A DNA stretch of 64,000 nucleotides from assembly GCA_030646915.1 (NCBI GenBank), contig JAUSKT010000021.1:19707-83706 (forward strand), in the 5' to 3' direction. The stretch comes from a bacterium. GTDB taxonomy: Bacteria; Patescibacteriota; Minisyncoccia; UBA6257; 02-FULL-45-10c. The notes beneath the pieces were generated by a model. That model saw nothing but the letters and a program-made list of their open reading frames with translations. It was not told the origin of the DNA and ran no database searches. This document shows positions 948 to 23,223 of the stretch, in pieces. Within the stretch, counting starts at the first letter, position 1; every line of letters starts with the position of its first letter. The translations under genes and the position numbers were made by a program.

Positions 948-2153
948 ATGCAGAGATATTATTTTGATTATGCGGCGGGTACGCCGGTAGATCCGATTGT
1001 GGAAAAAGCCATGCGTCCGTATTGGGCGGAAAAATCCGGAAATCCCGGATCACTTCATTTTTTCGGCCAAGAAGCATCTGCTGGAGTTTTTAATGCGCGC
1101 GATACGATAGCAAAAGCCTTAGGATGCAATTATAAGGAAGTTATTTTTACTGGCTCTGCAACGGAGGCGAATAATTTGGCGGTCAGGGGAGTTGTAAGAA
1201 GCTTCAGGCTTAAATTTCCAGGTATTAAGCCGAAAATTATAGTTTCAACAATTGAACATGAATCAGTTTTAGAAACTGCAAGAGACCTAGAAAGAGATGG
1301 TGTGGAAGTAGTTTATTTGCCAGTAGATAAAAATGGATTGGTGGATTTAAAGAAGTTAAAAGACGCACTGGATGAGCGGACAATTTTGGTTTCAGTAATG
1401 TATGTGAATAATGAAGTTGGGAGTATTCAGCCAATTAAAATGATTTCAGACATGGTTAAGAATTTCCGCGGCAGCAATAATTATCCATTATTTCACACTG
1501 ACGCAGTCCAAGCTTTTAATTATTTGAATTGTAATGTGAATGATTTGGGGGTGGACTTACTTACGCTTTCTTCCCAAAAAATTTACGGGCCGAAAGGATG
1601 TGGACTTCTTTATATAAGAAGTCAAAAGTTAAATGTCAAAAGTCAAATGTTGGGGCGAAATTTTATTTCGCCGATCATAACTGGCGGTTCGGCTCAAGAA
1701 TACGGGCTTCGCGCCGGAACGGAAAACGTGCCGGCAATTGTCGGATTTGGAAAAGCCATAGAACTTGTCTCTAATTCGCGCGAATTAGAGAATAAGAGAT
1801 TAAGGAAACTGCAGGAATATTTTTTGGCGCAGATGAAAAAAATTGCGCCTAAGGCAAAATTAAATGGCCCGGAAAATTTAAAAAATCGCATTCCCAATAA
1901 TTTAAATTTTTATTTTCCATCCCGCGAAAACGAATCAGGAACAGCCCAAGATTTACTGATTAAATTGGATTTAGCCGGTTTTGCGGTTTCGCCAGGCGCG
2001 GCTTGCACTGCCCGCACTTGCCAGCCATCGCATGTGCTGAAAGCTATGGGCTATTCAGATGAGCGCGCCACCAGCAGTTTACGGTTTACTTTTGGCAGGC
2101 CGATTTTTAAGAGTGATATTGATAAATTATTAAATGAGATAAAGAAATTTTGA
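948..2153 (+). CDS. iscS: cysteine desulfurase (class V aminotransferase, IscS/NifS)
   Basis: YFDYAAGTPVDP; SSQKIYGPKGCGLLYIR; GLRAGTENVPAIVGFG; C-terminal PGAAC active-site cysteine loop. Start set at MQRYYFDY (948). Stop is TGA. Confidence 0.9.
   Translation: MQRYYFDYAAGTPVDPIVEKAMRPYWAEKSGNPGSLHFFGQEASAGVFNARDTIAKALGCNYKEVIFTGSATEANNLAVRGVVRSFRLKFPGIKPKIIVSTIEHESVLETARDLERDGVEVVYLPVDKNGLVDLKKLKDALDERTILVSVMYVNNEVGSIQPIKMISDMVKNFRGSNNYPLFHTDAVQAFNYLNCNVNDLGVDLLTLSSQKIYGPKGCGLLYIRSQKLNVKSQMLGRNFISPIITGGSAQEYGLRAGTENVPAIVGFGKAIELVSNSRELENKRLRKLQEYFLAQMKKIAPKAKLNGPENLKNRIPNNLNFYFPSRENESGTAQDLLIKLDLAGFAVSPGAACTARTCQPSHVLKAMGYSDERATSSLRFTFGRPIFKSDIDKLLNEIKKF
1621..1648 (+). repeat. 4 x heptamer block GTCAAAA GTTAAAT GTCAAAA GTCAAAT, in frame inside iscS (encodes KLNVKSQML)
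   Basis: Direct read of the sequence. It coincides with roughly 10 extra residues relative to the IscS/NifS sequences I recall (LYVRxxxxLEPxxHGGG). Confidence 0.8.
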
Positions 2154-7818: not shown

Positions 7819-8535
7819 ATGTCGCCTGATTTTGTGAAACAAAAAGCTCGTGAAATTTCTTACGCCCTTTTGAGGGTGGCTTTTTATATAAAGAGGGTAG
7901 AATTCCGATCCCGTTTGGAAGTTTTAGCAGTAGAGCTTTTAGAAAATGCTTCAAGGATAAGCGTTGATGCTAGTTTAGAAAATACCAATAAGGCCGTGGA
8001 AACAGTTTCGGTCTTAGATGGATTAATCCGTTTGGCGCACTCTATTTATGAAATAGAACCGGTGAACGCGACTATATTAGTTAGAGAATTAGATGGTCTT
8101 AGTTCGGCAATTCGGCAAGTATCGGAAAATTCTCAAAATCAATCCGGCAACCCAGTCTTTAATTCTGAATTGCCGAATTTGGAGAGCTTATTTTCTAAGG
8201 TTCCAGTAGCCGTTACTTCTTCAGTTAAACCGGTTTCTAGTTATGAAACTGTAAATTTGAATTCTTTTGAGAATAATCAGGAACCGACCTTATCAGATAA
8301 TAAGGCAAACGGCAACGGTAATAGTTTAAATACGGCAATTCGGCAATCGGCAATTATAAATAGGGTTAGATCCGGCAATGGGAATGGTTGTCGGTTAAAA
8401 GAATTAATTACAGATTTTTCCGATGTTAGCGAAAGAACCCTAAGATATGACCTCCAAAGGCTTTGTGATCAGGGCGTTATAGAAAGGGTGGGTAATGGGG
8501 GACCAGCCAGCTATTATAGGTATAAGAAGGAATAA
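7819..8535 (+). CDS. putative transcription regulator with C-terminal DeoR-type winged HTH
   Basis: C-terminal SERTLRYDLQRLCDQGVIERVGNGG matches the DeoR HTH pattern S-RT-R-DL--L---G-I-R--GG. Helical N-terminal domain. NGNG low-complexity linker. Confidence 0.55.
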   Translation: MSPDFVKQKAREISYALLRVAFYIKRVEFRSRLEVLAVELLENASRISVDASLENTNKAVETVSVLDGLIRLAHSIYEIEPVNATILVRELDGLSSAIRQVSENSQNQSGNPVFNSELPNLESLFSKVPVAVTSSVKPVSSYETVNLNSFENNQEPTLSDNKANGNGNSLNTAIRQSAIINRVRSGNGNGCRLKELITDFSDVSERTLRYDLQRLCDQGVIERVGNGGPASYYRYKKE

Positions 8536-8885: not shown

Positions 8886-9077
8886 TAAATATCGGGAAAT
8901 TATTCTTTTGCTGAGGTCGATCCTTTGAATAGCGAAAGCGAAACAGGGGATAAGCAAAAAGGAGTAATTTTTTAAAAAGATTAACAAAATTAATAAATAA
9001 TATAAATTTTCTTCTTAGGTTTGAACGTCGATAATTTAGATCTAAAGAGAAAAAGGTCAAATAAAAATAAATTAAAT

Positions 9078-12000
9078 ATGAGTAAAAAATTAATACAAAA
9101 AGTTTCTACAACTGTAGTATCTATTGCTACAGTCGTTTCGCTTTCAGGCGCAGGAGCTTTGCTTCCAATGACAGTTAGTGGCGCAACCACAGCTGACTTG
9201 CAAGCACAGATTACTGCTTTGTTAGCGTCAGTAGCAGCTTTGCAAGCTCAATTAGGTTCAGCAACTTCTGGAACTTCCAGCGCTGCTTCAGCTACCTTAT
9301 TGTCTTCCGGGAACCTCACTCTCGGCAGCAAAGGAGCAGCAGTTATGGATTTACAGAAATTTTTGAATGCTAGTGGCGCGCAAGTTTCTGCTAGTGGCGC
9401 TGGCTCTCCTGGAAATGAAACTTCTTTCTTTGGTCCTGCGACCAGAGCAGCTCTTGCCAAGTGGCAGGCGGCTAATGGCGTTTCCCCAGCGGTTGGATAT
9501 TTTGGCGCGATCTCTCGTGCAAAAATGGCTTCTGTTGGTGGAACAACTGGCGGAACAACTGGCGGAACAACTGGCGGAACAACTGGAACAACTCCAGCCC
9601 CAGTAGTCCCAGCAGGCACTGGTTTGACGGTTACTTTAGCCGCAGATCAGCCAGCTCCAACATTAGCTCCTCGTTCAGCCGCCCGAATTCCATTCACTAA
9701 AATTCAATTAACCGCATCTGCCGACGGCGATGTAACGGTTAGTTCCTTAGTTGTGGAAAGAAAGGGTTTAGCTGAAGACGGCGCTCTTACTGGAATTCTT
9801 TTAGTAGATGAGAATGGAATTCAATTGGGCCTCAAAAAGACCTTGAATTCTTCCCATCAGGCTACTGTCGGTGAATCAATTGTGGTAAAAGCCGGTCAAA
9901 CTAGAACTTTGACTGTTGCCGCAAATAGAGACACTGCAGGCAGCCGTGGCGGTCAAACCGTTATGTTATCTGTTGTTGGAGTGAATACTTCAGCCGCAGT
10001 TAATGCAACCTTGCCGTTAAATGGAACCACTCAGACCATCAACGAAACCTTAACAATTGGTGACGTTACTATGGCTCGGGGCGGTAATGACCCAGGCACT
10101 AGCCGGACTAAGGAAATCGGTACTACCGGTTATACTTTTTCTTCGGTTAGAGTAACTGCTGGTTCAGCGGAAAAAGTTATTTTGAAGTCTATCCGATGGA
10201 ACCAGACTGGTTCTGCCGGCTCCGGTGATTTAAAGAACATCAAGTCTCTTGTTGATGGTGTTTCTTATGACACTGTGGTCAGCACTGACGGTAAATACTA
10301 CACTTCAACTTTTGGAGTCGGTATTTTAATGGACAAAGGTTCAATTAAAGATGTTTCTATTAAGGGTGATATTGAGGGGGGTTCTTTAAGAACTGTTGAC
10401 TTTGATATCGCGAAGATGACTGATCTCTTTGTAACCGGAGAAAACTTCGGCTACGGCATTGTTCCTCCACAAACTGGAACATCAGCTGCGACAGCTGACT
10501 CAGCCAATTTTAATAACACGGAAGATCCGTGGTATGATGCGGCTCAAGTTACTGTCAGTTCCGGGACTATGTCGGTAAGCAACTGGGCGGGCGTTCCGTC
10601 TCAGAATCTCGCCATTAATCTCGGCGGCCAGCCATTGGCTGGTTGGACGGTTGATGCAAAAGGCGAGCCAATCAGTGTTAGTAGTTTAAAGGTTACTTTA
10701 TACGGAGTTGGCACTACTAATGGAGTAGATGACTTAACTACCATATATTTGCAAAATGAAGCAGGAAAAATCTTAGCTGGTCCGATTGACGTTGCCAGCA
10801 CTGCCACAAATAATGCAATTATTACCTTTACTGACACTATTACTTTCCCAGTTGGAATAACTAACCTTACTTTAAAAGGTAAGCTGGGAACTGGTTTTAG
10901 CAATAATGACACCATTGCTGCTTCTACCACTCCAGGCGGTTGGACGACTACTGGTCAGACAACTGGATACTCAATTACTGCGACTCCGAGTACTGCTTTA
11001 GAGGGTCAGACAATGACTGCTAAGGGCTTAGCGCTGACTATCAGCGTTCAATCCACTCCAGCAGCTCAATCGATTGTCGGCGGAGCTCAAGGATTTGAGT
11101 TTACCCGATACACCTTTGATGCTTCTCAATCAGGCGAAGATGCCAAAATGAGCAGCGTTAATCTTGCAATTGACTACTCTGGCACAACTTCGGATAAACT
11201 ATCCGGTTGCCAGTTATGGGATGGCGTAACCGCTCTTAATACCGGCGGAAGCAATGTAGTAGACCCTACCGCAACTGCTTCTTCAACGGCATTTACTTTT
11301 GACACGCCATTAGTAGTTCCAAAAGGGACATCTAAGACGCTTTCTCTTAAATGCAATACGGAAACAGTTTCCGCTACTACGAATTATCGTTGGGGCATTG
11401 ATACCGATGCTTCATACACAGTAACAGGCTTAACTTCTGGACAATCAATTACTGACACGACTGTTGTGCCAGCCGCTAATAATAGCATTGGCCAATTAAT
11501 GTCTTTGACTACCGGCGGTTCTTACACCGTTACTGATGAAGATACCCCGGCTTACAGAATTGTAACGCCTGGCGCAGAAGAAACTTTGGGAAGATTGGCA
11601 TTCCAAGCCTCAACCGAGGCGATTGATGTCAGGGCAGTAGCGCTTAAATTAACCGGCGGTGCTTCTAATACCCCTAAAGATCTTCTTAACTTAAAGGTTA
11701 AGTTCTATGATGCGGCTAATCCTTCGGTTTCGATTGGTGAAGCTAATTTCGTAAATGAAGGGGATACTGCTACCGGCACGCTTGCCGTAGGAAGCTTTAA
11801 GGTGGAAAAAGGATACGGCGCGAGAAAGATACTTCTTATAAAAGGCACTATTGCTGACATCAGCGATGTTGCTTATGGGAATTATCAACTTACTGCGTCC
11901 GGCGACCTTCTTAAGGTTGATTACGATGGCGCTGCGGTTGGTTTGGCAAACGGCAACTACGGTGTTGGTTCGGCTGGCAATGTTTCCGGTCCGACCACTA

Positions 12001-12680
12001 ATACTACGTTAGCCGGCGTAAGGATAATGAAAGCAAAACCTGTTTTTGCTAAATTATCTTTGCCGAAAAATACCATCGCTGGCAACGCGGACCAGAGTGT
12101 GTACCGATTCTCTGTAGCAGCCACTAATGGAAATGTGGATCTTTATAAGGTCACATTCACTGTTGGCTCTTCAACGGTTTCGGCAACCACATCAGATTAT
12201 AAACTGTATGCCTTTACTGGTGCTGGCTTTAGCGGAGCGCTTCCGGGCTGGGCTGATTCTACTGGCTTATTGAATGCTGGCGGTTGCACGGATGGTTTAT
12301 CCGACACTTCTCCACAACGTTTAACTCTGAATGTTTATATGGATCAAACTGGCTGTGCTCAGGGTACTACTACCTTGAAGATTCCGATGGGGTCAACGTA
12401 TTACTTTGACTTGCATGCAACATTTGGCTCTGTTAGGACCACTACTGGATCTGAAAATATCAGCTTCCAATTAGAAGGCGATAGCGCTTTCCCAGTGAAT
12501 TCTTCTAACTTGATGCAACAAGCAAGTGGAGTTGATGGTGATGTTAGTGATGACCTTATCTGGTCACCGCGTTCAACAACCAGTCCTTCAGTTAGTAATC
12601 TTGACTTTACGAACGGAAATGGCGTTGATGGCTTGCCAGCTTCTAACATGAATCAGGAGACCCTAACGTTCACTCTGTAA
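9078..12680 (+). CDS. large cell-surface (S-layer-like) protein: signal peptide, peptidoglycan-binding domain, GGTT repeat linker, roughly 1000-aa Thr/Ser/Gly/Ala-rich beta-rich region
   Basis: Signal peptide MSKKLIQKVSTTVVSIATVVSLSGAGALLPMTVSGA. PG_binding_1-like segment LGSKGAAVMDLQKFLNASG...FGPATRAALAKWQAANGV. (GGTT)4. Almost no Cys. 460-nt upstream leader. Start moved from the track value (9021) to the ATG at 9078 in the same frame. Confidence 0.8.
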   Translation: MSKKLIQKVSTTVVSIATVVSLSGAGALLPMTVSGATTADLQAQITALLASVAALQAQLGSATSGTSSAASATLLSSGNLTLGSKGAAVMDLQKFLNASGAQVSASGAGSPGNETSFFGPATRAALAKWQAANGVSPAVGYFGAISRAKMASVGGTTGGTTGGTTGGTTGTTPAPVVPAGTGLTVTLAADQPAPTLAPRSAARIPFTKIQLTASADGDVTVSSLVVERKGLAEDGALTGILLVDENGIQLGLKKTLNSSHQATVGESIVVKAGQTRTLTVAANRDTAGSRGGQTVMLSVVGVNTSAAVNATLPLNGTTQTINETLTIGDVTMARGGNDPGTSRTKEIGTTGYTFSSVRVTAGSAEKVILKSIRWNQTGSAGSGDLKNIKSLVDGVSYDTVVSTDGKYYTSTFGVGILMDKGSIKDVSIKGDIEGGSLRTVDFDIAKMTDLFVTGENFGYGIVPPQTGTSAATADSANFNNTEDPWYDAAQVTVSSGTMSVSNWAGVPSQNLAINLGGQPLAGWTVDAKGEPISVSSLKVTLYGVGTTNGVDDLTTIYLQNEAGKILAGPIDVASTATNNAIITFTDTITFPVGITNLTLKGKLGTGFSNNDTIAASTTPGGWTTTGQTTGYSITATPSTALEGQTMTAKGLALTISVQSTPAAQSIVGGAQGFEFTRYTFDASQSGEDAKMSSVNLAIDYSGTTSDKLSGCQLWDGVTALNTGGSNVVDPTATASSTAFTFDTPLVVPKGTSKTLSLKCNTETVSATTNYRWGIDTDASYTVTGLTSGQSITDTTVVPAANNSIGQLMSLTTGGSYTVTDEDTPAYRIVTPGAEETLGRLAFQASTEAIDVRAVALKLTGGASNTPKDLLNLKVKFYDAANPSVSIGEANFVNEGDTATGTLAVGSFKVEKGYGARKILLIKGTIADISDVAYGNYQLTASGDLLKVDYDGAAVGLANGNYGVGSAGNVSGPTTNTTLAGVRIMKAKPVFAKLSLPKNTIAGNADQSVYRFSVAATNGNVDLYKVTFTVGSSTVSATTSDYKLYAFTGAGFSGALPGWADSTGLLNAGGCTDGLSDTSPQRLTLNVYMDQTGCAQGTTTLKIPMGSTYYFDLHATFGSVRTTTGSENISFQLEGDSAFPVNSSNLMQQASGVDGDVSDDLIWSPRSTTSPSVSNLDFTNGNGVDGLPASNMNQETLTFTL
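9541..9590 (+). repeat. 12-nt tandem repeat (GGCGGAACAACT) x4 encoding a GGTT linker
   Basis: Direct read of the sequence. The LAEQLAEQ ORF at 9367-9606 is the out-of-frame shadow of this repeat. Confidence 0.9.
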
Positions 12681-13564: not shown

Positions 13565-15271
13565 ATGAATAAAATAGGAAAATATTTTTTAGGGATTCAG
13601 CCATTTAAAATTTTAATTTTTATTATTTTGATTCTTGCCTTTTTGTTAAGATTTTGGAATGTTTGGAATCAAGATTTGTTCGGAGATGAAGCGCCGGACG
13701 CTTTTCGGGCAATTGGATATATAGATTATTTAGGCACTAGTTTTCAGACTCAGCCGATTGATTGGTACAAAAATACCGCTTTGCCCTGGTGGACCAGCCT
13801 TTCCTTCCACGATTTTCCGCCGCTGGCGATGATAATTCAGCACGCTTTTTTTGCGGTTTTTGGAGATTCGCTTTTAGTTGCCCGGTTGCCGGCGATAATT
13901 TTAGGAGTAATTTCGGTTTTTTTACTCTATTTAATCGCTAAAAAGTTTTTCGAAAATGAGATTTTGGCTTTATTTTCGGCCTTATTTTTCGCCATTAATA
14001 GCGAGATGGTATGGATTTTTCGTACTAGCATGCTAGAACCTATATTGCTATTTTTTATTTTGCTTAATATTTATTTTTTTTATCAGTTTATTTATGAAAA
14101 TAAATCCGGGCATTACTGGTGGCTTTTTGGAATAAGCTTGGGGCTGGTAACCTTGACTAAATACACAGGGGTTTTTTTGCTCCCGGTTTATATTCTTTAT
14201 ATTTTGATAACTAAAAGAGAAATTTTTAAAAATTGGAGATTGTATGCCGCTTTCCTTTTGGCCATCCTTTTATTTTTGCCGGTAATTATTTATAATATTT
14301 ATCTTTATAAAGCTACCGGGCATTTTGATTTGCAGATTTCCTATTTTCTTGGACAGGAGACGCCGGAATGGACGGGTTTAGTGGGGAAGATTCAATCGCC
14401 TTTTTCTGACATTCTTAAAAATTTGATGTTTCAGCAAAAAGATTCTGCCCCAAATTCCGTATGGCCGGTAGGTTATTATGGTTTGCCAGCTATTTTAGCT
14501 GTTTTGGGCGGAATAGTTTATTCCCTCCAAGATTTTCTTAAAAAGAAATTTAAAGGATTTGTATTTTTCAGCTTATATTTTATTTTTGTGACTTTGCTTT
14601 TGTTTAAAATCGGATCAGCGCATCGGTTTTTGGCCCTATATGGCCCCGCTTTTGCTATTTTTGCCGGTTATCTAGTGAATTCCCTATGGAATTTAAAAAT
14701 AAAAAAAGGAGTTGGTTTAGCATTTAAGGCGCTAATATTCATATTTTTTATTTGGGAATTATCTCATTCAATAAATACCAATTTTATTCAATATCCGAAT
14801 TATGGCATGGCTAATCTGGATAATTTTTTTAGAAATGAATTTCGAGGTAGAGAATCCGCGGTAGTTCCAGAATCGGATAATCCGCATTTAAATGACGTGA
14901 TTGGGGAATTTGTTGACAAAAAATCAGCTAATGCGCCGCGCGCCCTATGGCTGGTCATTTATAATGATAATGTCGCCCTGCCTACTTTGGAGTGGATTTA
15001 TTATAAAATGTTTTTTTATCACAGTATCCCGGCCATGTATGTTGAGAATTTTAATAAAGCAGTGAGTATTCAGGGTTCAGATTATTTTAAGGGCTTTGAT
15101 ATTTATTTTGTCCAAAGCACGGAAAATACTCCTTTGAATCAATTTAAAAAAGAGAAAACTGCCGGCTTGGAGTTTGAGAATCGCCTGCAAAAAATGGGAT
15201 TGCAGCCGATGAAAATTATTCACGGTCAAAATAATCTGCCGATGTTCAGAATCTATAAATTTTCTTTATAG
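13565..15271 (+). CDS. polytopic membrane glycosyltransferase, GT-C fold (ArnT/PMT-like, GT39/GT83-type)
   Basis: FGDEAPD acidic motif in the first extracytoplasmic loop. More than 10 predicted transmembrane helices. 568 aa. Confidence 0.7.
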   Translation: MNKIGKYFLGIQPFKILIFIILILAFLLRFWNVWNQDLFGDEAPDAFRAIGYIDYLGTSFQTQPIDWYKNTALPWWTSLSFHDFPPLAMIIQHAFFAVFGDSLLVARLPAIILGVISVFLLYLIAKKFFENEILALFSALFFAINSEMVWIFRTSMLEPILLFFILLNIYFFYQFIYENKSGHYWWLFGISLGLVTLTKYTGVFLLPVYILYILITKREIFKNWRLYAAFLLAILLFLPVIIYNIYLYKATGHFDLQISYFLGQETPEWTGLVGKIQSPFSDILKNLMFQQKDSAPNSVWPVGYYGLPAILAVLGGIVYSLQDFLKKKFKGFVFFSLYFIFVTLLLFKIGSAHRFLALYGPAFAIFAGYLVNSLWNLKIKKGVGLAFKALIFIFFIWELSHSINTNFIQYPNYGMANLDNFFRNEFRGRESAVVPESDNPHLNDVIGEFVDKKSANAPRALWLVIYNDNVALPTLEWIYYKMFFYHSIPAMYVENFNKAVSIQGSDYFKGFDIYFVQSTENTPLNQFKKEKTAGLEFENRLQKMGLQPMKIIHGQNNLPMFRIYKFSL

Positions 15272-16395
15272 ACCGATTCAGTTTTAGATACCATTTTCTC
15301 TAAGCTGAATTTTTCCAATACTGCTTTTTGAGCCATTTTTCCCAATTCGTTGCCAATAGTTTTGTTAGTTATTAATCCATTGATGGCCCCTGCGAGTATC
15401 GCCGAATCTTTTTGCGCTACCATTAATCCATTCTCATGATTTTTAATCATTTCCGGTATACCGCCAGCTTCCGTAACCACAATTGGCAATTCCGCCGCCA
15501 TCGCTTCCAGTAATATATAGGGCAGTCCCTCTTTGATTGAAGACATAACGAAAATATCAAAAGCTTTTAGGTATTCGGCGTCATTTCCAGTCGGATTAAT
15601 AAAGAAAAATCTACTATTGACATTTGACATTTGACATTTGACGTTCAACTTTTTTAATTCTGGTCCTTCGCCGATTATAAAAAAATAAGCATTAGGAATT
15701 AGGGCGGCGGATTGAATGAGGGTTTCGTAATTTTTTTCTTTAACTAATCGGCCAATGGAGCCAATCCACGGATAATTGGAATTAGGAATTAGGAATTTGG
15801 AATTTGGAATTTTATTTGCTATTTCTTTCCGTGCTTCTTCTTTGGATAAAAATTTCATATTTGGATCAATGCCATTATGGATTGTAGTTAATTTATTTTT
15901 CGGCGCAATTTTGTATTTTAAGGCCAAATTATAGTCATATTCTGAAACGCAGATGATTTTATCTTGGAATAATGCGGAAAATTTATGAAGCAGAATATAA
16001 AACCAGCGGATTGGGAAAGATAATTCATTAGTTGGATTAAAAACCCAGCCATGGGCGGTGAAGACCACCTTCGGCGGCGAACATTTGACATTTAACATGT
16101 GACATTTGACTTTATAGATTTTGGCGGCCAAAGAGCCAAGAACTCCGGCCTTAGAACTATTCAGATGAATGATGTCCGGACGTTCTTTTTTGTATAATTT
16201 AATTAATTCTATTATTGCCAGCCAGTCATTTATAAAAAACGGCCAGATTTTATTGGAAAGCCAGCGGAGGTCTTTTTGGCCAAAAATAATTTTAGAATCA
16301 AATTGATTCTTATCTAAATTAGCAGACAAATCATGGACATATTTTTGAGCTCCGCCAATATCAGCCTTTGTAATTATATAGAGAACTTTTATCAT
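15253..16395 (-). CDS. glycosyltransferase family 4 (GT-B)
   Basis: EX7E motif EGLPYILLEAMAAELPIVVTEAGGIPEMI. Contains three in-frame heptamer blocks. Confidence 0.9.
   Translation of the reverse strand: MIKVLYIITKADIGGAQKYVHDLSANLDKNQFDSKIIFGQKDLRWLSNKIWPFFINDWLAIIELIKLYKKERPDIIHLNSSKAGVLGSLAAKIYKVKCHMLNVKCSPPKVVFTAHGWVFNPTNELSFPIRWFYILLHKFSALFQDKIICVSEYDYNLALKYKIAPKNKLTTIHNGIDPNMKFLSKEEARKEIANKIPNSKFLIPNSNYPWIGSIGRLVKEKNYETLIQSAALIPNAYFFIIGEGPELKKLNVKCQMSNVNSRFFFINPTGNDAEYLKAFDIFVMSSIKEGLPYILLEAMAAELPIVVTEAGGIPEMIKNHENGLMVAQKDSAILAGAINGLITNKTIGNELGKMAQKAVLEKFSLEKMVSKTESVYKENL
15617..15644 (-). repeat. 4 x heptamer block (TTGACAT x3 + TTGACGT on the top strand; GTCAAAT on the sense strand), encoding NVKCQMSNV
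   Basis: Direct read of the sequence. Confidence 0.85.
15781..15815 (-). repeat. 5 x heptamer block ATTAGGA ATTAGGA ATTTGGA ATTTGGA ATTTTAT (encodes IPNSKFLIPNS); a further ATTAGGA ATTAGGG pair lies at 15691-15704
   Basis: Direct read of the sequence. Confidence 0.85.
16081..16108 (-). repeat. 4 x heptamer block ACATTTG ACATTTA ACATGTG ACATTTG (encodes HMLNVKCSP)
   Basis: Direct read of the sequence. Confidence 0.85.
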
Positions 16396-16427
16396 TTTAT
16401 TAGTTATATAATATAATTATAACTCGT

Positions 16428-17612
16428 ATGTTTAATAAAAATCCTCAAATAGCCGTTTTCTCGTTTGCTTATCATCCTTTTGAGGGGGGCGCTGAAATAG
16501 CCATAAGAGAGGTAATAAAGCGGCTTTTGGGTCTTAATTTTACTATTTTTACCTATAAATTTAATCGAAGCTGGTCCCCAAAAGAACGAAATGGCAATGT
16601 CGAAATTTTTCGGCTAGGGAGGGGAAGCAGATCTGGCAAATTATATGGCCGAATTTGGAGCAAGATTTTTTATATTTTTAAAGCTTTAGCTGAAGCAGAA
16701 AATTTGCATCAGCGGGAACGTTTTGACGCAATTTGGGCAGTCATGGCTTCTTATGGCGGTGTTGCAGCTTTATTTTTTAAATTAAAGCATCCAAAAGTGC
16801 CATTATTTTTAACTATTCAAGAAGGCGATTCGGAGCGGCATATGGTTTTGGGAAAATTTGGATTGGTGGGATTTTTAGGAAAAAGAATTATTAAAAATGC
16901 TGATTATATACAAGTAATCAGCAATTATTTAAAAGAGTTTGTAAAAAAAAGAGGCGCTGAATCGCCCATAGAGGTTATTCCTAATGGAGTAGATTTGGAA
17001 TTATTCAGCACCAAATATAGCAATGCGGAATTAAAGGCAATCCGTGAAAATTTAGGATTGAAAGATGAGTATGTCGTCATTACTACTTCCCGGCTGGTTT
17101 ATAAAAATGCAGTGGATGTTTTGATTGAAGCTATTGCGATTTGTAAAAGTAAAATGTTGAATATTAAATGTTTGGTTATCGGAGGCGGGCCGGAAAAAGA
17201 TAAGCTGAAATCCCAATGTAAAAAGTTAAAAGTTGATAACGATGTTATTTTTTTGGGGCAGATTCCCCAGCGGGACTTGCCCTTGTATTTGAAAGTTTCA
17301 GATCTCTTTGCAAGGCCTTCGCGTTCTGAGGGATTGGGGAGTTCTTTTTTAGAGGCGATGGCTGCCGGAATTCCGGTAATTGGTACTCCAGTAGGCGGAA
17401 TAGTGGATTTTTTAAAGGATGGCGAAACTGGTTTTTATGTGAAAGTTAATGATCCAAAAGATTTGGCAGATAAAATTTCTAAGGCTTTACGGGATCCGGA
17501 ACTTCGAAAGAAGGTTATCCATAACAGCCAGGTTTTAATCAGAGAAAATTATTCTTGGGATAAAATTGCGATTTTATTTAAAAATATTTTTGATCGCTTA
17601 ATCAATTTTTAA
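16428..17612 (+). CDS. glycosyltransferase family 4 (GT-B)
   Basis: EGLGSSFLEAMAAGIPVIGTPVGGIVDFL. A degenerate 7-nt periodic stretch at 17143-17175 encodes KSKMLNIKC. Confidence 0.9.
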   Translation: MFNKNPQIAVFSFAYHPFEGGAEIAIREVIKRLLGLNFTIFTYKFNRSWSPKERNGNVEIFRLGRGSRSGKLYGRIWSKIFYIFKALAEAENLHQRERFDAIWAVMASYGGVAALFFKLKHPKVPLFLTIQEGDSERHMVLGKFGLVGFLGKRIIKNADYIQVISNYLKEFVKKRGAESPIEVIPNGVDLELFSTKYSNAELKAIRENLGLKDEYVVITTSRLVYKNAVDVLIEAIAICKSKMLNIKCLVIGGGPEKDKLKSQCKKLKVDNDVIFLGQIPQRDLPLYLKVSDLFARPSRSEGLGSSFLEAMAAGIPVIGTPVGGIVDFLKDGETGFYVKVNDPKDLADKISKALRDPELRKKVIHNSQVLIRENYSWDKIAILFKNIFDRLINF

Positions 17613-17618
17613 TAATTT

Positions 17619-18734
17619 ATGTCAAAAAGAATTTTAATTGCAACTGGAATTTTCCCGCCGGATATAGGCGGTCCCGCGCTTTACAGCCAGAAATTGGCAG
17701 AAGAATTTTTAAAATTCGGAAAAAAAGTTACGGTACTTACTTACGGCAAAGGGTTTTTAAAAAGCAGCGATTATAAAATATTTGGCGTTTCCCGGTTGTG
17801 GCCTTCTGGAATTCGGCAGTTAATTTATCTTTTTAAATTATTGATTCAAGTTAAGGAATCAGACGCTTTATTAGCTATGGATTCTTTGGGTGCTGGTTTG
17901 CCAGCAGTTATAGCAGGAATTTTATTTAATAAAAAAGTGATTATTCGGATGGGGGGGGATTTTTTATGGGAAAAATTCGTTGAGTTTGGGCAAGGCAATG
18001 TTACTTTGACTGAATTTTATAAAAAAAATCTTCATAAAAGATTTCCTTTTTTGAATCGCTTGATAACTTTTACTTTAAAAGGGGCGAGTGCGGTTGTTTT
18101 TACCACCGATTTTCAAAAAGAAATATTTTTAGCCCATTACGGATTAAATCCCGACAAAACTTTTGTAGCGAGCAATGTTTTTAAAAAAGAAGCGGGCAAG
18201 ATCCAGCCCGAAAATATTGCAAAAACCATTTTGTGGGCAGGGCGTTTTTTAAAACTGAAGAATTTAGATTTTTTGTTGAAAATTTTTAAGCGCCTGCTGC
18301 CTTATAATCAAAACCTATCTTTAGAATTAGTTGGCGACGGTCCGGAAAAAAAGCGGATTGAAAAAATGGTTAAATCGGAAAAATTAGATGGGAAAGTTAA
18401 GATAAGCCCCGTAGCAGACAAATCGGCTGTAGCTGCTAAAATTATAAGCTCTTATTTTTGCATTTTGCCTTCTTTATCTGAAGTTAGCCCTAATTTTGCC
18501 CTGGAGTGTTTAGGCGCAGACAAGCCCGTCATTATTACCCAAGAAACCGGAATAAAAGAACAATTTCCCGGACTTATGTATGCCGATCCGAAGAAAGAAG
18601 ACAGTTTTTTTTCGGCCGCCCTTAGGCTGCTAGATAAAAATACATATTACAACTATCAAAAATTTATTTCTGAGATTTCTTATCAAAAGACCTGGCAGGA
18701 TTTAGCCAGTGAATATTTAAATTTATTAAAATGA
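17619..18734 (+). CDS. glycosyltransferase, GT-B fold (GT4-like, divergent)
   Basis: Two Rossmann-like halves. LVGDGPEKKRIEKM linker. C-terminal SEVSPNFALECLGADKPVII. Confidence 0.65.
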   Translation: MSKRILIATGIFPPDIGGPALYSQKLAEEFLKFGKKVTVLTYGKGFLKSSDYKIFGVSRLWPSGIRQLIYLFKLLIQVKESDALLAMDSLGAGLPAVIAGILFNKKVIIRMGGDFLWEKFVEFGQGNVTLTEFYKKNLHKRFPFLNRLITFTLKGASAVVFTTDFQKEIFLAHYGLNPDKTFVASNVFKKEAGKIQPENIAKTILWAGRFLKLKNLDFLLKIFKRLLPYNQNLSLELVGDGPEKKRIEKMVKSEKLDGKVKISPVADKSAVAAKIISSYFCILPSLSEVSPNFALECLGADKPVIITQETGIKEQFPGLMYADPKKEDSFFSAALRLLDKNTYYNYQKFISEISYQKTWQDLASEYLNLLK

Positions 18735-19870
18735 AAATTTTAACAATTGGTTCTGAAAGGAATCTTTTTAAAGATAATTCGGAAGCTCAAAAAAGAATTA
18801 AAGAATATGGGCAGCTTTATGACGAGTTAAGAATTATTGTTTTTAGTAATGCCGCAGATGAAAATAGCAATCTTCAATTGGGCGGGAACATTTTTATTTA
18901 TCCTACAAATCACAAAGTTAAATTATTTTATCTTTGGGATATTTATAAAATTGTAAATTCATGGAATTCATGGAAACCAGATATGATTACTTGCCAGGAT
19001 CCTTTTGAATCTGGTTTGGCTGGCTGGCTGTTGAAATTTTTTTTAAAAACCTCGCTTCAGCTGCAAGTTCACACTGATATTTTCAGCCCTTATTTTGGGC
19101 AAGAGTCGTTAAAAAATAAAATTCAATTGATGCTGGCTAAATTTTTATTACCGAAGGCAGATGGCATTCGCGTTGTTTCGGAAAGGATAAAACAGTCACT
19201 TAAGTCGAATGTCAAAGGTCAAATGTCAAATGTTATTGTATTGCCGATTTTTGTTGATATTAAGAAAATCCAATCTGCCAAAATAAAAGCTGATCTCCAT
19301 AAAAAATATCCGGATTATGATTTTATAATTCTAATGGCATCTAGGCTAAGTAAAGAAAAAAATATTGGAATGGCGATTGAGGCAATGAAAGAACTAAGTT
19401 TAAAGTCAAAAGTAAAAAGTAAAATGCTATTGTTGATTGTCGGTGATGGGCCAGAAAAAGAAAAGTTAATAGTTAAATGTCGAATGTTAAATGTTGTTGA
19501 TAATGTAAAGTTTGAGCCATGGACAGATGATTTGGTTTCTTACTATAAAACCTCTGATTTATTTTTGCTTATTTCCAATTATGAGGGATATGGCCGGACA
19601 GCAATAGAAGCAATGGCAGCTGGATTGCCGGTTGTTATGACTGATGTTGGTTTGGCTGGAGAAATATTAGTTGATGATTTAGATGGCAGAATAGTGCCGG
19701 TTGGAGATGCAAAAGCGCTTATAGAAGCAATTCTGCAATTACTAGAAAATCCTCTTAAAAGAGAAGAATTTAAGCAAAATAGCTTAAAATCGTTGAAAAA
19801 ATGGCCCACAAAAAAGGAATATTTGGAAAGATACAAAAATTCATTGAGTTTTAATAAGATGTTAAAATAA
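18731..19870 (+). CDS. glycosyltransferase family 4 (GT-B)
   Basis: EGYGRTAIEAMAAGLPVVMTDVGLAGEIL. Three heptamer blocks at 19204-19231, 19398-19425 and 19465-19499. Confidence 0.9.
   Translation: MKILTIGSERNLFKDNSEAQKRIKEYGQLYDELRIIVFSNAADENSNLQLGGNIFIYPTNHKVKLFYLWDIYKIVNSWNSWKPDMITCQDPFESGLAGWLLKFFLKTSLQLQVHTDIFSPYFGQESLKNKIQLMLAKFLLPKADGIRVVSERIKQSLKSNVKGQMSNVIVLPIFVDIKKIQSAKIKADLHKKYPDYDFIILMASRLSKEKNIGMAIEAMKELSLKSKVKSKMLLLIVGDGPEKEKLIVKCRMLNVVDNVKFEPWTDDLVSYYKTSDLFLLISNYEGYGRTAIEAMAAGLPVVMTDVGLAGEILVDDLDGRIVPVGDAKALIEAILQLLENPLKREEFKQNSLKSLKKWPTKKEYLERYKNSLSFNKMLK
19204..19231 (+). repeat. 4 x heptamer block GTCGAAT GTCAAAG GTCAAAT GTCAAAT (encodes KSNVKGQMSNV)
   Basis: Direct read of the sequence. 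Confidence 0.85.
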
Positions 19871-19876
19871 ATTCAT

Positions 19877-21529: not shown

Positions 21530-22266
21530 TGAAAATCGTTATTATTATCCCAACTTATAATGAAAAAGAATCTATTGGCGAACTGATAGATGCGCTGGAA
21601 AGCGAATTTTTACTAATTTCCTCTCATGAAATGCATATCTTAATTGTGGATGGAAATTCTCCGGACGGCACGGCAGAAGCAATAAAGCAAAAACAGAAAA
21701 TTTATCACAATGTAGATCTAATAATAGAAAAAGAAAAGCGGGGATTAGGAATGGCATATATAGCGGGAATGAAATATGCAGTAAATCACTTGAATGCTGA
21801 TGCTTTTATAGAATTTGATGGAGATTTTCAACACGATCCAAAAGATATCAAACGCTTAATCGCAGAATTGGACAATGGGTATGACTATGTTATCGGTTCT
21901 AGATATGTTGCGGGGGGCGGTGTCCCCGGAGATTGGGCATTTCATAGGAAATTACTTAGTAAATTTGGTAGCTTATTTATTAAATTAGTTTTATCCCTAC
22001 CAACCAATGATAATACTTCGGGATTGAAATTATCCAGAGTAAAAGGATTTTTTGATAAGTTGCCATTAGATGAAAATAAAATTTTATCCAAGCGCCACGC
22101 TTATAAAATTCATCTTTTATATGAAATGATGCGTTTAGGAGTGAAAGTAAAAGAAATCCCAATTGTTTTTTTAGAGCGGGAAAGCGGCAATTCAAAAAGT
22201 TCATTTGAGGATATTATTGAGTCTCTAAAAGTAACCCTATCTTTATTTTTTAAAAAGAAATTTTAA
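21529..22266 (+). CDS. GT2 polyprenyl-phosphate glycosyltransferase (Dpm1/ArnC/GtrB-like)
   Basis: IIIPTYNEKESI; ILIVDGNSPDGT; DGDFQHDP (DXD-like motif). Confidence 0.88.
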   Translation: MKIVIIIPTYNEKESIGELIDALESEFLLISSHEMHILIVDGNSPDGTAEAIKQKQKIYHNVDLIIEKEKRGLGMAYIAGMKYAVNHLNADAFIEFDGDFQHDPKDIKRLIAELDNGYDYVIGSRYVAGGGVPGDWAFHRKLLSKFGSLFIKLVLSLPTNDNTSGLKLSRVKGFFDKLPLDENKILSKRHAYKIHLLYEMMRLGVKVKEIPIVFLERESGNSKSSFEDIIESLKVTLSLFFKKKF

Positions 22267-22267
22267 T

Positions 22268-22834
22268 ATGCTTGAATACCCTGATAAATTAGTTTTAAGA
22301 ATAAATGAGCTTTATTATACTTTAGGAGGAGAAGATTATGATTGTTCTCATGAAGAAATCTTAATATTGGAACCACCTCGCTGGAAAAGAGTTGCTGGAG
22401 CTTTAGTCGCTAATTCAGCACATCAGAAAAAGACTATACTAGACGTTGGTTCCGGTACGGGATTTGTAGCAACAGTTCTTGGCCCGTATTTAACTGATAA
22501 GGATCAGTTTATTTGCTTAGACATTTCTCAAAAGTTCTTAGATCAATGCAAATTAAATTTAGAAAATAAAAAATTTAAGTGTCAATTAGTCTATAAACAA
22601 TATAATGGAATGCTTTTACCCTTTGAAGATAAATCTATTGATATTTTGACTTTGAATTCTGTTTTGCATCATATTCCCAATACAGAATTATTTCTTGGCG
22701 AGGTGGACAGAGTTTTAAAAAGAGGAGGATATTTAGTAATTGGCCATGAAGCAAATCGGAGATTTTATAAAAATAAAGCCGTTTGGACCTTATATCGAAT
22801 TTTATATGTTTTTTTAATCCGTCATCCATTATAG
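22268..22834 (+). CDS. class I SAM-dependent methyltransferase (possibly the 5' part of a frameshifted gene)
   Basis: ILDVGSGTGFVATVL motif I. The ORF stops just after a T7 tract. Confidence 0.75.
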   Translation: MLEYPDKLVLRINELYYTLGGEDYDCSHEEILILEPPRWKRVAGALVANSAHQKKTILDVGSGTGFVATVLGPYLTDKDQFICLDISQKFLDQCKLNLENKKFKCQLVYKQYNGMLLPFEDKSIDILTLNSVLHHIPNTELFLGEVDRVLKRGGYLVIGHEANRRFYKNKAVWTLYRILYVFLIRHPL

Positions 22835-23205: not shown

Positions 23206-23223
23206 TTAAGAGTTTTATTGATT

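Follow-up and report, generated by a model that had tools for sequence, protein, structure and literature searches.

Tandem repeats of seven nucleotides lie inside the reading frames of several neighbouring glycosyltransferase genes in a Patescibacteria genome, which raises the question of what makes these repeats and whether they do anything for the cell. An earlier note on this DNA had proposed slipped-strand switching of surface-glycan genes, a tiny in-frame insertion module of common origin, or embedded promoter hexamers. We analyzed the window, that is, the whole 64-kb stretch of DNA, together with orthologous loci and other genomes carrying the motif. The arrays are a new form, embedded in coding regions, of the bacterial heptamer repeats, a known class that still lacks an explanation.

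Heptamer arrays in the window

The heptamer arrays in the window are real and lie far beyond chance expectation. Six period-7 arrays with at least 17 of 21 matches were seen, compared with 0.10 expected from 200 dinucleotide-preserving simulations of the window, and (GTCAAAT)3 with up to 3 mismatches matched 10 times versus 0 in 100 shuffles. Among periods 4-11, the enrichment was limited to period 7. The seven sites listed in the earlier note were present at, or a few bases from, the positions it gave, and the peptides it quoted were correct. They fall in three of four neighbouring GT4 glycosyltransferase genes and not, as had been stated, in all four: a scan of the window found no array in the GT4 gene at 17619..18734, nor in four more GT4-like genes elsewhere in the window. 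An eighth array, of the same unit family but outside the region covered by the note, is located in a cysteine desulfurase gene (Table 1). Most tracts identified with TRF are imperfect and have 3-5 units each, with several per gene. A single unit family is common to 5 or 6 of the 8 arrays. The description of every site as GTCAAAT-like fails at 15776..15812, where the unit (CCWAATT) belongs to another family. The window also contains one 12-nt array, unrelated to the heptamers.

Table 1 Heptamer arrays in the window and the genes that carry them.
Feature	Position	Strand	Sense unit	Peptide	Location and support
Cysteine desulfurase (class-V aminotransferase), 1 array	948..2153	+			Pfam Aminotran_5 1.3e-66; source records use the name cysteine desulfurase
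Array	1619..1650	+	GTCAAAA GTTAAAT GTCAAAA GTCAAAT	QKLNVKSQM	Cysteine desulfurase; TRF
GT-A, GT4 glycosyltransferase, 380 aa, 3 arrays	15253..16395	-			Pfam Glycos_transf_1 1.8e-32, Glyco_transf_4 8.4e-19
Array	15617..15644	-	GTCAAAT x ~4	NVKCQMSNV	GT-A residues ~250-259, helix C-alpha2 and loop preceding beta strand; TRF 3.7 copies (15617-15642, TTGACAT on forward strand), 100%
Array	15776..15812	-	CCAAATT/CCTAATT x ~5	KIPNSKFLIPNS	GT-A residues ~195-207, inter-domain linker loop (AF2 pLDDT 78-81); TRF 5.3 copies, 93%
Array	16081..16110	-	GTCAAAT/GTCACAT/GTTAAAT x ~4	VKCHMLNVKC	GT-A residues 96-105, end of helix 81-100 and loop ahead of strand 109-114; TRF 4.3 copies, 82%
GT-B, GT4 glycosyltransferase, 394 aa, 1 weak array	16428..17612	+			Pfam
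Weak degenerate array	17145..17172	+	GTAAAAT GTTGAAT ATTAAAT GTT	KSKMLNIKC	GT-B; 15/21 lag-7 matches
GT-D, GT4 glycosyltransferase, 379 aa, 3 arrays	18731..19870	+			Pfam
Array	19204..19233	+	GTCGAAT GTCAAAG GTCAAAT GTCAAAT	SNVKGQMSNV	GT-D, end of N-terminal domain; TRF 4.3 copies, 86%
Degenerate array	19398..19425	+	GTCAAAA GTAAAAA GTAAAAT	KSKVKSKM	GT-D; TRF 3.3 copies (19402-19424), 93%
Degenerate array	19461..19499	+	GTTAAAT GTCGAAT GTTAAAT GTTG	VKCRMLNV	GT-D; TRF 5.0 copies (19461-19495), 75%

The AF2 model of GT-A has the glycosyltransferase fold termed GT-B (pLDDT 90.5). In this confident model, the GT-A arrays map to predicted alpha-to-beta connections, i.e., helix ends or loops before a beta strand; around array 15617..15644, the modelled helix spans residues 247-256 and the strand residues 263-266. 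The GT-D array at 19461..19499 is structurally equivalent in position to this array, and residue ~250 is an array hot spot common to many GT4 paralogues.

Coding constraints on the arrays

Two regularities that had been read as signals, a shared codon phase and a constant sense strand, carry no information of their own. Because 7 and 3 are coprime (gcd(7,3)=1), the three frames of an array give one cyclic 7-residue peptide, and its codon phase is automatic. The orientation of GTCAAAT is forced because the complement, (ATTTGAC)n, has TGA in all frames; all 127 (GTCAAAT)n arrays found elsewhere were open on the GTCAAAT strand only.

The claim that the periodicity does not come from protein-level selection was borne out. 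In 30 of 75 coding arrays, the consensus unit would yield an in-frame stop, and the mismatch rate in coding arrays was 0.39 at would-be stop codons versus 0.08 elsewhere. In array 19398..19425, for example, the deviations fall where the idealised repeat would have TAA codons. In addition, both the units and the peptides they encode differ among orthologues at equivalent array sites. The patched stops and the different orthologue units together show that the periodicity is DNA-driven and that coding selection opposes it.

Orthologues carry arrays at the same sites with different units

Among the GT-A orthologues (~30 related Parcubacteria metagenomic loci, 120 proteins), periodic segments with other units were found at the same three sites. 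At 15776..15812, the orthologue units CAAACTA, CAACTTT, CGACTTC, CAATTAC and AAATTGG were related and in register. We compared the consensus units of orthologous arrays at each rotation offset. At offset 0, units matched at 4.3 of 7 positions for site 1 (1.3-3.5 at other offsets) and at 3.9 of 7 for site 3 (1.0-2.9 at other offsets). Offset 0 was uniquely best in 33 of 66 pairs at site 1 and in 26 of 55 pairs at site 3, compared with about 1/7 expected. This in-register similarity across genomes indicates that the arrays were inherited and evolve in concert. At many orthologous sites, the array is a perfect 4-unit tract though synonymous divergence is saturated. In some lineages, the array has decayed without loss of the gene.

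The proposed insertion module found partial support. The array at 1619-1647 (1619..1650 in Table 1) is an exact 21-nt insertion (LNVKSQM) when set against L159 and L160, two syntenic relatives that read AATCAAAAATTAGG there, and comparison with L159 shows that it was seeded on an AATCAAA-like unit already in place. The same cysteine desulfurase loop, which carries (AAGAGAC)3 in a third relative, is hypervariable and rich in heptamer-derived peptides across 120 homologues. At 16081..16110, array-less orthologues were shorter by ~7 or more residues. Other GT4 sites kept their length. In 96 of 113 orthologues, the segment at GT-A site 1 (residues 250-259) measures 23 residues irrespective of its unit, and the GT-B array at 17145..17172 is equal in length to the non-periodic FKEKQPNIKC of its relatives (alignment with L162, L164, L127 and L128). 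At 19204..19233, L121 and L162 carry the same unit as the GT-D array, L164 carries ATTACCN and L126 carries ACCCTAW, with no or almost no difference in length, so the GT-B and GT-D sites swap unit while length holds. As for a common origin, the arrays at each site are homologous in register and are not copies of one mobile module.

Arrays in other genomes

In 814 kb of other motif-carrying genomes, we found 240 period-7 arrays, and no other period from 4 to 12 exceeded 20. GT4 genes are enriched in arrays: density is highest in GT4 ORFs (0.56 per kb), followed by DNA outside ORFs (0.31) and the remaining ORFs (0.03). Most of the GT4 arrays are repeat counts of a few orthologous sites in many genomes. 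Runs of at least 3 GTCAAAT units occurred in >119 stretches from many phyla, often several in one genome, and perfect (GTCAAAT)3-4 was found within essential genes of other Patescibacteria (Pth, LeuRS, TsaD, PheT, UvrB and LepA). The Pth array, compared by eye with the E. coli sequence, appears to replace a native segment of equal length.

The same units reappear at unrelated sites and in distant phyla, and genomes with one GTCAAAT array contain more GTCAAAT-like arrays (33/165 versus 6/68 elsewhere, within one mismatch). These recurrences hint at templating or a restricted repertoire of units. Among related genomes, units within a locus were no more alike than units of different loci (16% versus 12% within one mismatch), and single loci contained up to 7 different units. 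Perfect-run lengths were flat to ~34 nt, with a sharp drop beyond. In one strain pair with 99.2% identity, an array was replaced wholesale between identical flanks; the same pair showed short-patch recombination also at non-array sites.

Proposed origin of the arrays

We put it at somewhat better than an even chance that the arrays are heptanucleotide microsatellites in coding DNA, kept periodic by a DNA-level process in a 7-nt register and filtered by selection. Misalignment or conversion in this register, for which slipped-strand mispairing or short-range template switching in replication or repair are candidates, would make and maintain the periodicity. Selection would permit the stop-free strand alone as sense and tolerate a length change of 21 nt (3 units, 7 residues) or zero, and point changes would patch would-be in-frame stops. 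Tolerance may be limited to segments off the catalytic cleft that lead into a beta strand, at helix ends or in loops. Arrays in structurally required segments (e.g., GT4 residues 247-262) could not be deleted and would persist "frozen" at ~4-5 units for very long times, and their continued homogenisation would leave orthologues differing in unit yet in register. What we infer is the misalignment or conversion step, why the period is 7, and that "frozen" arrays underlie the GT4 enrichment. As the evidence stands, the arrays are by-products (intragenic molecular drive) and neither switches nor regulatory sites.

Some observations run counter to the microsatellite explanation. Whole-unit slippage would cause frameshifts, and homogenisation at constant length (GT site 1, Pth) is not accounted for, nor is the choice of 7 over 6, 8 or 9. 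For a purely neutral by-product, a GT4 density above that of intergenic DNA is unexpected. The wholesale replacement in the 99.2% pair is not what stepwise slippage predicts, and the sharp fall past ~34 nt is not the geometric tail of free slippage.

Alternative explanations

A dedicated, horizontally spread activity could instead write or copy arrays of ~28-35 nt. Candidates are a polymerase or reverse transcriptase working from a template, a mobile module of very small size, or ectopic switching of template to another array. Such an activity would give genome-typical units, equal-length replacement and a ceiling near 5 units. The sharp fall in perfect-run length and the wholesale replacement between strains would suit it, as would the unit family shared by most arrays of the window, the modest within-genome excess of GTCAAAT-like arrays, the >119 stretches in many phyla with a sporadic distribution like that reported for TAACTGA repeats, and the preference for ~4 units in Xanthomonas/Nostoc and Geobacter too. 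We consider it unlikely, however, because the units of one locus resemble each other no more than units of different loci do and single loci mix many of them, while in-register homology at one site across genomes implies vertical descent. The arrays show neither a target duplication nor a terminal structure, we identified no candidate enzyme, and short-patch recombination can account for the difference in the 99.2% pair.

Phase variation is less likely still. Here, slippage of one unit (7 nt) would toggle surface-glycan glycosyltransferases, and concerted evolution would be the footprint of ON-OFF-ON cycles. GT4 genes are 20-fold richer in arrays than other ORFs, and perfect 4-unit orthologous tracts despite saturated synonymous divergence imply fast turnover. 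However, none of ~86 full-length GT4 genes, carrying ~60 arrays, was frameshifted. The 7-nt-step length polymorphism that the earlier note had suggested looking for was not found in near-identical assemblies: array length did not change among 31 near-identical (>=90%) proteins from 9 clusters and different samples, or between 99-100% identical contig pairs from different samples, in comparisons that, like that of frame, rest on consensus assemblies, which rare OFF subpopulations could escape. The tracts are also short, inside folded domains and mostly imperfect in the window, and identical arrays occur in the essential genes named above, with one in the cysteine desulfurase of the window.

There is only a slim chance that the arrays are DNA or mRNA binding sites, with one protein subunit per heptad (ribbon-helix-helix- or RNA-regulator-like), that regulate the glycosylation cluster. 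Periodicity is kept at fixed sites through deep divergence, the arrays are unstructured as RNA and hence accessible, and similar proposals exist for the Geobacter and Beggiatoaceae heptamer sets. On the other hand, the unit varies among orthologues and among sites of one gene, some lineages lose the periodicity and keep the gene, arrays are also found in unrelated housekeeping genes, and there is no Rfam family match and no known binder.

The remaining proposal, that complementary (TTGACAT)n provides the -35 hexamers of antisense or internal promoters, is highly improbable: TTGACA is the sigma-70 -35 consensus and recurs every 7 nt antisense to GTCAAAT arrays, but promoter-like sites are no commoner than in shuffles (11 in 15000-20000 versus 18.2 +/- 4.6), arrays are overlapped by a single weak match (9/12), a good -10 at 16-18 nt is missing throughout, and orthologous arrays and site 15776 use TTGACA-free units.

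Comparison with known repeats

Rickettsia palindromic elements are in-frame selfish DNA in coding genes, present as palindromic mobile insertions of 100-150 nt. They resemble the present arrays in being DNA-driven, in frame and in surface-exposed parts of conserved or essential proteins of a reduced genome. The present arrays, unlike them, are tandem heptamers of 28-35 nt and often equal-length replacements.

CAAACAA repeats in Neisseria pglE are phase-variable heptamers in a glycosyltransferase, and heptamer-based phase variation of such a gene would therefore not be new for bacteria in general. In H. influenzae, 7-bp repeats in the hmw1A and hmw2A promoters control the HMW adhesins, so such repeats do serve phase variation elsewhere (PMC8262952). 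Like our arrays, both have a 7-nt unit and are linked to surface or glycosylation genes. However, known heptamer switches have long perfect tracts (often >10 units), their copy number differs from strain to strain, and they are often found out of frame; our arrays showed none of these features.

Short sets are usual among heptamer repeats, with 2-6 or ~4 units (PMC4692102, PMC2700814). In Geobacter metallireducens, four tandem GGGACCG units occur in 49 intra- and intergenic copies (Aklujkar et al. 2009, PMC2700814); these have a single GC-rich unit with conserved flanks, were proposed to be a regulatory RNA element, and were described without orthologue comparison. The GGGNATC repeats of Xanthomonas and Nostoc are, as here, dispersed heptamer arrays that prefer ~four units (Rehm et al. 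2015, PMC4692102), a preference ascribed to G4 formation, which is inapplicable to GTCAAAT.

TAACTGA repeats of marine Beggiatoaceae, Cyanobacteria and Bacteroidetes have 2-6 copies and many sets per genome, as here, and are sporadically distributed, with horizontal transfer suspected and no mechanism found (MacGregor 2015, PMC4679880). One orientation likewise has stops in all frames, so that ORFs admit the other alone, and the same phyla are among the (GTCAAAT)n matches. Their sets lie mostly just upstream of start codons with one dominant unit per genome, whereas the present arrays are inside folded domains with many units per genome.

By the account of Mrazek (2007) summarised in PMC4679880, many prokaryotes have heptanucleotide repeats as their most abundant class of long SSR, and polymerase slippage was proposed as their origin. 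Prokaryotic 7-nt SSRs, including cyanobacterial STRR, are tandem direct heptamers sporadic over phyla, with period 7 far above its neighbours, like the present arrays (Mrazek et al. 2007, as summarised in PMC4679880; PMC4692102). In these summaries, they are mainly intergenic and from large genomes, with 7-nt units reported as disfavoured in coding DNA. The present arrays, in contrast, are nearly all in frame within genes of a small, AT-rich Patescibacteria genome and occupy orthologous sites with concerted evolution.

Period-7 arrays in the window

The 7-nt repeats are best read as heptanucleotide microsatellites of DNA-level origin that became frozen in frame where a protein segment is permissive or its structure fixed. 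They have been inherited and homogenised for long periods, and coding selection keeps them in check. Judging by the names of homologues in the sources, the host is a member of the Parcubacteria/Patescibacteria near Candidatus Harrisonbacteria.

Short tandem runs of 7-nt units (arrays) were called with Tandem Repeats Finder and by scanning for self-matches at lag 7. Eight arrays of 3.3-5.3 units were identified in the window, all (8/8) inside ORFs, and five or six of the eight belonged to the GTCAAAT family. Apart from the one perfect array, they had 75-93% matches. Ten matches to (GTCAAAT)3 with at most three mismatches were found, compared with none in 100 shuffles, and six arrays reached a lag-7 score of at least 17/21, compared with 0.10 in dinucleotide-preserving simulations. 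Periods 4-11 other than 7 were not enriched in the window. The earlier note had placed heptamer repeats in four adjacent GT4 glycosyltransferase genes (GT-A to GT-D). The repeats are real and statistically solid, but GT-C contains no array and the array at 15776-15812 has a different unit. The four further GT4-like genes in the window also contain none.

Genes and period-7 arrays in the window (coordinates of the window)
Feature	Position	Strand	Basis	Remark
GT-A, GT4 glycosyltransferase gene	15253..16395	minus	ORF; Pfam Glycos_transf_1, Glyco_transf_4	
GT-B, GT4 glycosyltransferase gene	16428..17612		ORF; Pfam Glycos_transf_1, Glyco_transf_4	
GT-C, GT4 glycosyltransferase gene	17619..18734		ORF; Pfam Glycos_transf_1, Glyco_transf_4	
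GT-D, GT4 glycosyltransferase gene	18731..19870		ORF; Pfam Glycos_transf_1, Glyco_transf_4	
Period-7 array	1619-1650			GTCAAAT family; cysteine desulfurase gene; outside the region of the earlier note
Period-7 array	15617-15642		Tandem Repeats Finder, lag-7 scan	Sole perfect array
Period-7 array	15776-15812			Sense unit CCWAATT, differing from GTCAAAT
Period-7 array	16081-16110		Tandem Repeats Finder, lag-7 scan	
Period-7 array	17145-17172		Tandem Repeats Finder, lag-7 scan	Weak
Period-7 array	19204-19233		Tandem Repeats Finder, lag-7 scan	
Period-7 array	19402-19424		Tandem Repeats Finder, lag-7 scan	
Period-7 array	19461-19495		Tandem Repeats Finder, lag-7 scan	

The window also holds a large glycosylation region (13565-27965 and 40226-43601) with eight GT4-like genes as well as PMT-family and GT2 genes. 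Among these eight GT4-like genes, arrays occur only in three clustered ones.

Arrays at equivalent sites are inherited and change in concert

We aligned 37 homologues of GT-A and retrieved 37 related metagenomic loci. Most GT-A orthologues are periodic at the same three sites but use different heptamers, as back-translated from the peptides: RPTTYDL corresponds to CGACCTA, NYKLQTT to AACTACA, NLQLTTY to AACTTAC, LSTFDFR to CTTTCGA, KLKVKSE to AAAGTGA and TLNPKPY to ACCCTAA. Arrays are missing from some distant orthologues.

The units at one site were found to be related in register, as at site 3, where the DNA reads CAAATTC, CAAACTA, CAACTTT, CGACTTC, CAATTAC or AAATTGG. With the six other rotations of each unit as an internal control, in-register matches reached 4.3/7 at site 1 (1.3-3.5 at other rotations) and 3.9/7 at site 3 (1.0-2.9). 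Offset 0 was uniquely best in 33 of 66 pairs at site 1 and 26 of 55 at site 3, where about 1/7 would be expected; the signal was weaker at site 2 (2.6/7). This in-register relatedness indicates that the arrays at sites 1 and 3 were inherited and that substitutions spread among the units. The alignments thus point to vertical inheritance followed by concerted evolution at these two sites, and it is concerted evolution that keeps the arrays perfect or nearly so despite protein divergence to 55-73% identity. Homogenisation at constant length could proceed by conversion during transient 7-nt misalignment, by paired gain and loss, or by import.

The related loci carry 1-7 arrays each, with up to seven different units per locus, and units from one locus did not resemble each other significantly more than units from different loci. 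A single genome-specific unit thus does not seem to be the general rule in this comparison.

Fixed lengths and exact gains

Site 1 (GT-A residues ~247-262) was found to span 23 residues in 96 of 113 orthologues, whatever the unit. Here the periodic sequence thus fills a structural element of fixed length rather than being an insertion. The GT-B site (CKSKMLNIKC in the window, FKEKQPNIKC in relatives) and GT-D site 5 (SNVKGQMSNV in the window, TQLPNYRLPI in relatives) likewise switch unit or become periodic while their length stays the same or nearly so. At sites 2 and 3, array-bearing orthologues are longer (25 versus 18 and 32 versus 25 residues, respectively), with length peaks of 18/25 and 25/32/39/46 residues. 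We considered a 7-residue length quantum at these two sites, but in our own count the excess was gone once the modal class was removed.

The only firm length step, and the clearest insertion, is the cysteine desulfurase array, an exact gain of 21 nt (three units) relative to the syntenic metagenomic loci L159 and L160. Those loci read AAT CAA AAA TTA GGA (NQKLG), whereas the window reads AGT CAA AAG [TTA AAT GTC AAA AGT CAA ATG] TTG GGG, with the insert adjoining a resident AATCAAA-like unit. The same loop carries (AAGAGAC)3 in another related locus, L157. Among 120 homologues, this loop varies between no insert and over 30 residues, with an abundance of heptamer-derived peptides such as IPNSKFLIP, NLKPSTYNLKP and IIHNSKFIIHP.

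The earlier note had also raised a tiny in-frame insertion module of common origin. The arrays do not behave as a mobile miniature in-frame element (RPE/MITE-like): they share no ends, their units vary by site and genome, and the length of site 1 is fixed.

Some arrays are themselves split in frame by GC-rich inserts. At site 3 of the related loci L134 (about 3412-4545) and L131, such inserts (30 nt in L134) could form hairpins, as read by eye from the DNA; the L134 array reads AAACTTA TAACTTA [CTTGCCCGTCCGAAGCCTTGCGAAGGAGGG] AAACTTA AAACTTA. Splitting inserts were seen, at the peptide level only, in the proteins P0253, P0030, P0036, P0037, P0039, P0057, P0061, P0067 and P0101 (e.g., PGRAGGQA, LPVRSLAKEGN), some of which are read-level variants of one population. 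These inserts could represent another type of tiny in-frame element, one with the arrays as its target.

Coding selection opposes the repeats

The shared codon phase of the arrays, which the earlier note had pointed out, is automatic because 7 and 3 are coprime: (GTCAAAT)n gives the cyclic peptide VKCQMSN in all three frames, so shared phase is no sign of common origin. Likewise, (ATTTGAC)n contains TGA in every frame, so that only sense-oriented arrays can survive in genes. Among the matches listed from other genomes, the 127 (GTCAAAT)n arrays with three or more units are all open on the sense strand only, a bias that for the same reason is not evidence of an RNA-level role.

We analyzed 75 arrays within ORFs of at least 600 nt. 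In 30 of them, the consensus unit predicts an in-frame stop once per three units, for example AAAGTTA (TAA) or CTAGAAT (TAG). The mismatch rate against the ideal repeat was 0.39 at would-be stop codons and 0.08 elsewhere, as in the patched array CTAGAAT CTAGAAT TCAGAAT CTAGAAT. Coding selection thus opposes the periodicity, and the patched stops show directly that the repeat belongs to the DNA level: the protein tolerates it, and it is not selected through the protein.

Position in the protein and enrichment in GT4 genes

GT-A was modelled confidently with AlphaFold2 on the basis of alignment A1 (mean pLDDT 90.5, pTM 0.89). The model predicts two Rossmann-like beta-alpha-beta halves, which fits the GT-B architecture that GT4 enzymes should have. 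In the model, all three GT-A arrays are located at alpha-to-beta connections: residues 96-105 form the end of helix 81-100 and the loop preceding strand 109-114; residues 195-207 form the loop from helix 185-195 to strand 210-214, an inter-domain linker with the lowest pLDDT (78-81); and residues 250-259 lie in helix 247-256 and the loop preceding strand 263-266. In Rossmann-like domains, alpha-to-beta connections lie opposite the substrate cleft. Among 86 GT4 paralogues, arrays clustered at residue-equivalents ~250 (28 cases), 200 (13 cases), 100, 160 and 40-60.

Pooling the window with the non-redundant related loci, we counted 60 arrays in 108 kb of GT4-like ORFs (0.56 per kb), 6 in 218 kb of other ORFs (0.03 per kb) and 7 in 22.5 kb of non-ORF DNA (0.31 per kb). 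The GT4 excess has a Poisson P of ~1e-55, although the counts are not independent, since most of them come from the same small set of orthologous or paralogous sites in different genomes. The enrichment could be explained by "frozen" arrays. An array that has taken over a structurally required segment would persist because it could not be removed in frame, while arrays in dispensable loops or intergenic DNA would be lost again.

Wholesale array differences and a possible dedicated activity

Two related loci syntenic with the GT cluster of the window, L161 and L162, are 99.2% identical over 7.2 kb, with 56 differences. Of these, 22 fall in the GT-A site-3 array, which belongs to another unit family, has identical flanks and differs by 3 nt in length. 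Substitutions cluster at 1204-1223, 3579-3624 and 6493-6523 (6, 22 and 9 changes within 20-46 nt); two of these short clusters (6-9 substitutions in 20-31 nt) lie outside arrays. As read from the two sequences, this suggests very short-patch recombination in these populations. Similar wholesale array differences were found in the proteins P0275 and P0271.

These replacements, together with other features of the arrays, keep alive a minority reading in which arrays are written or converted in place by a candidate horizontally distributed activity and, in this Parcubacteria clade, would serve as exchangeable cassettes at GT4 domain-boundary loops. The candidate writers would be a templated polymerase or reverse transcriptase, or an oligonucleotide-type short-patch replacement. 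If true, this would explain equal-length replacement, the limit of ~5 units, wholesale replacement between 99%-identical strains and the same units in unrelated genes and phyla. We consider it improbable.

Phase variation, promoters and RNA structure

The earlier note had proposed slipped-strand contingency switching of the glycosyltransferases. Phase-variable loci rely on long perfect tracts; where units are long, 5-6 units or more are typical, and the known cases far exceed this. The arrays in the window are short, at 3.3-5.3 units, and all but one are imperfect. In tblastn searches with full-length GT4 proteins against all non-redundant loci, none of ~86 genes was split between frames. No change in array length was found among 31 full-length proteins in nine clusters of at least 90% identity, and contig pairs 99-100% identical from different samples had identical arrays. 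The earlier note had named two observations that together would refute switching, namely uniform array lengths and orthologues encoding the same segments without the 7-nt period. We found no length heterogeneity in the accessible population data, whereas the orthologues keep the periodicity. Within the clusters of at least 90% identity, arrays account for 10% of the length and for 7 of 39 variable positions; hypervariability by point substitution was not significant (p=0.10).

Nor are the arrays restricted to dispensable surface genes: they are enriched in GT4 genes, yet the cysteine desulfurase and other housekeeping genes carry them. In other Patescibacteria MAGs, perfect (GTCAAAT)3-4 was found in frame in Pth (peptidyl-tRNA hydrolase), LeuRS and other class-I synthetases, as well as in MiaA, TsaD, UvrB, PheT, LepA and Dus. 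On/off switching is disfavoured because it would be lethal in Pth, LeuRS and similar genes.

In L159 (2348-3623), the phosphoglucomutase gene is broken and yields two products, of 132 and 300 aa, which may reflect an assembly error or a real frameshift. It was rejected as an OFF allele, the break being ~170 nt downstream of a GTCAAAT array, at T6/A6 runs.

Embedded -35 hexamers of sigma-70 promoters, another option of the earlier note, showed no excess over shuffles: with a promoter taken as a TTGACA-like hexamer and a TATAAT-like hexamer 16-18 nt further on, the region has 11 promoter-like sites compared with 18.2 +/- 4.6. The sole match overlapping an array (16092-16120) is weak, at 9/12, and most orthologous units lack TTGACA. 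Neither contingency switching nor promoter function is supported.

The arrays had no Rfam match at E<=1, and five array regions folded no differently from shuffles (z = -0.9 to +1.25). The cysteine desulfurase region gave z = -2.8, owing to a hairpin that flanks the array and takes in its first unit; this hairpin, GGACTTCTT...AAGAAGTC, is located directly upstream of the array at 1619-1650, first unit included. Inversion or recombination between the inverted GTCAAAT arrays of GT-A and GT-D was rejected, their longest common exact stretch being ~7-8 nt.

Comparison with known heptamer repeats

Exact (GTCAAAT)3 was found in more than 119 stretches of species-representative genomes, compared with an estimated chance expectation of ~0.3 for a random 21-mer. 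The matches listed come from Patescibacteria, Bacteroidota (including cultured Parabacteroides distasonis), Ignavibacteria, Acidobacteriota, Cyanobacteria (Lyngbya), Beggiatoaceae, Omnitrophota and archaea, often with several per genome. In 814 kb around these matches, period 7 accounted for 240 arrays and any other period for at most 20, and perfect-run lengths were flat to ~34 nt and then fell off. GTCAAAT-like arrays (at most one mismatch) were commoner in genomes having one GTCAAAT array (33/165 versus 6/68).

The prokaryotic excess of heptanucleotide repeats, on record since 2007, came without a mechanism and with mainly intergenic examples. As summarised in PMC4679880, heptanucleotide repeats are the most abundant long SSRs in many prokaryotes, and polymerase slippage was proposed (Mrazek 2007). 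Beggiatoaceae, Cyanobacteria and Bacteroidetes carry TAACTGA in sets of 2-6 copies, with "no mechanism evident" (PMC4679880), GGGNATC repeats prefer four units in Xanthomonas and Nostoc (PMC4692102), and Geobacter metallireducens has four tandem GGGACCG units at 49 sites, both intra- and intergenic (PMC2700814). Like this class (STRR, TAACTGA, GGGNATC and the Geobacter 4x7 repeats), the arrays are tandem 7-nt direct repeats far exceeding neighbouring periods and form short dispersed sets, eight in the 64-kb window. Unlike the mainly intergenic heptanucleotide SSRs, they lie mostly in ORFs (66 inside and 7 outside in the related loci). The arrays thus fit the known class, and their coding-embedded form is new; the literature searched yielded no paper on the GTCAAAT repeat or its peptide and no description of in-frame heptamer arrays in Patescibacteria.

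Since these repeats lie inside conserved proteins, orthologue alignments can be used as a ruler. The ruler reveals exact 21-nt gains seeded on a resident unit, a structural helix turned periodic at equal length, and unit-by-unit concerted evolution at fixed sites with selection patching repeat-made stops. It makes the question of why seven, and what writes them, more directly testable, and the main value of the coding-embedded arrays is as a system for dissecting the prokaryotic heptamer bias. Many odd low-complexity peptides in Patescibacteria proteins (VKCQMSN, RPTTYDL, IPNSKFQ, KLKVKSE and others) trace back to DNA repeats and have no standing as functional motifs. Read-level evidence is needed before such tracts are annotated as phase-variable switches.

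Other repeats

Three further repeats were observed in the window. A 12-nt tandem repeat, TGGCGGAACAAC (4.2 copies, 97% matches, 9536-9586), lies in frame in a 1219-aa ORF (9021..12680) whose orthologue in L160 has a PG_binding_1 domain. A 9-nt repeat, AATTCATGG (2.2 copies, 18956-18975), encodes NSWNSW in GT-D; near this position, the orthologue in the related locus L164 bears a heptamer array (LIGNWKLEIGN). The GC-rich palindrome CCCGTTAGAGGC...GCCTCTAACGGG, with 12-bp perfect arms (8560-8608, intergenic after ORF 7819..8535), is a candidate terminator or small palindromic element.

On the related metagenomic contig L142 (19377-19528), a CAGTTAC array of ~21 units in a short open frame far exceeds any in-gene array. 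In a Patescibacteria MAG (L056, 6190-6570), intergenic DNA holds four tandem copies of a 94-bp unit; (GTCAAAT)3-4 is present in every copy, and GC-rich inverted repeats come next.
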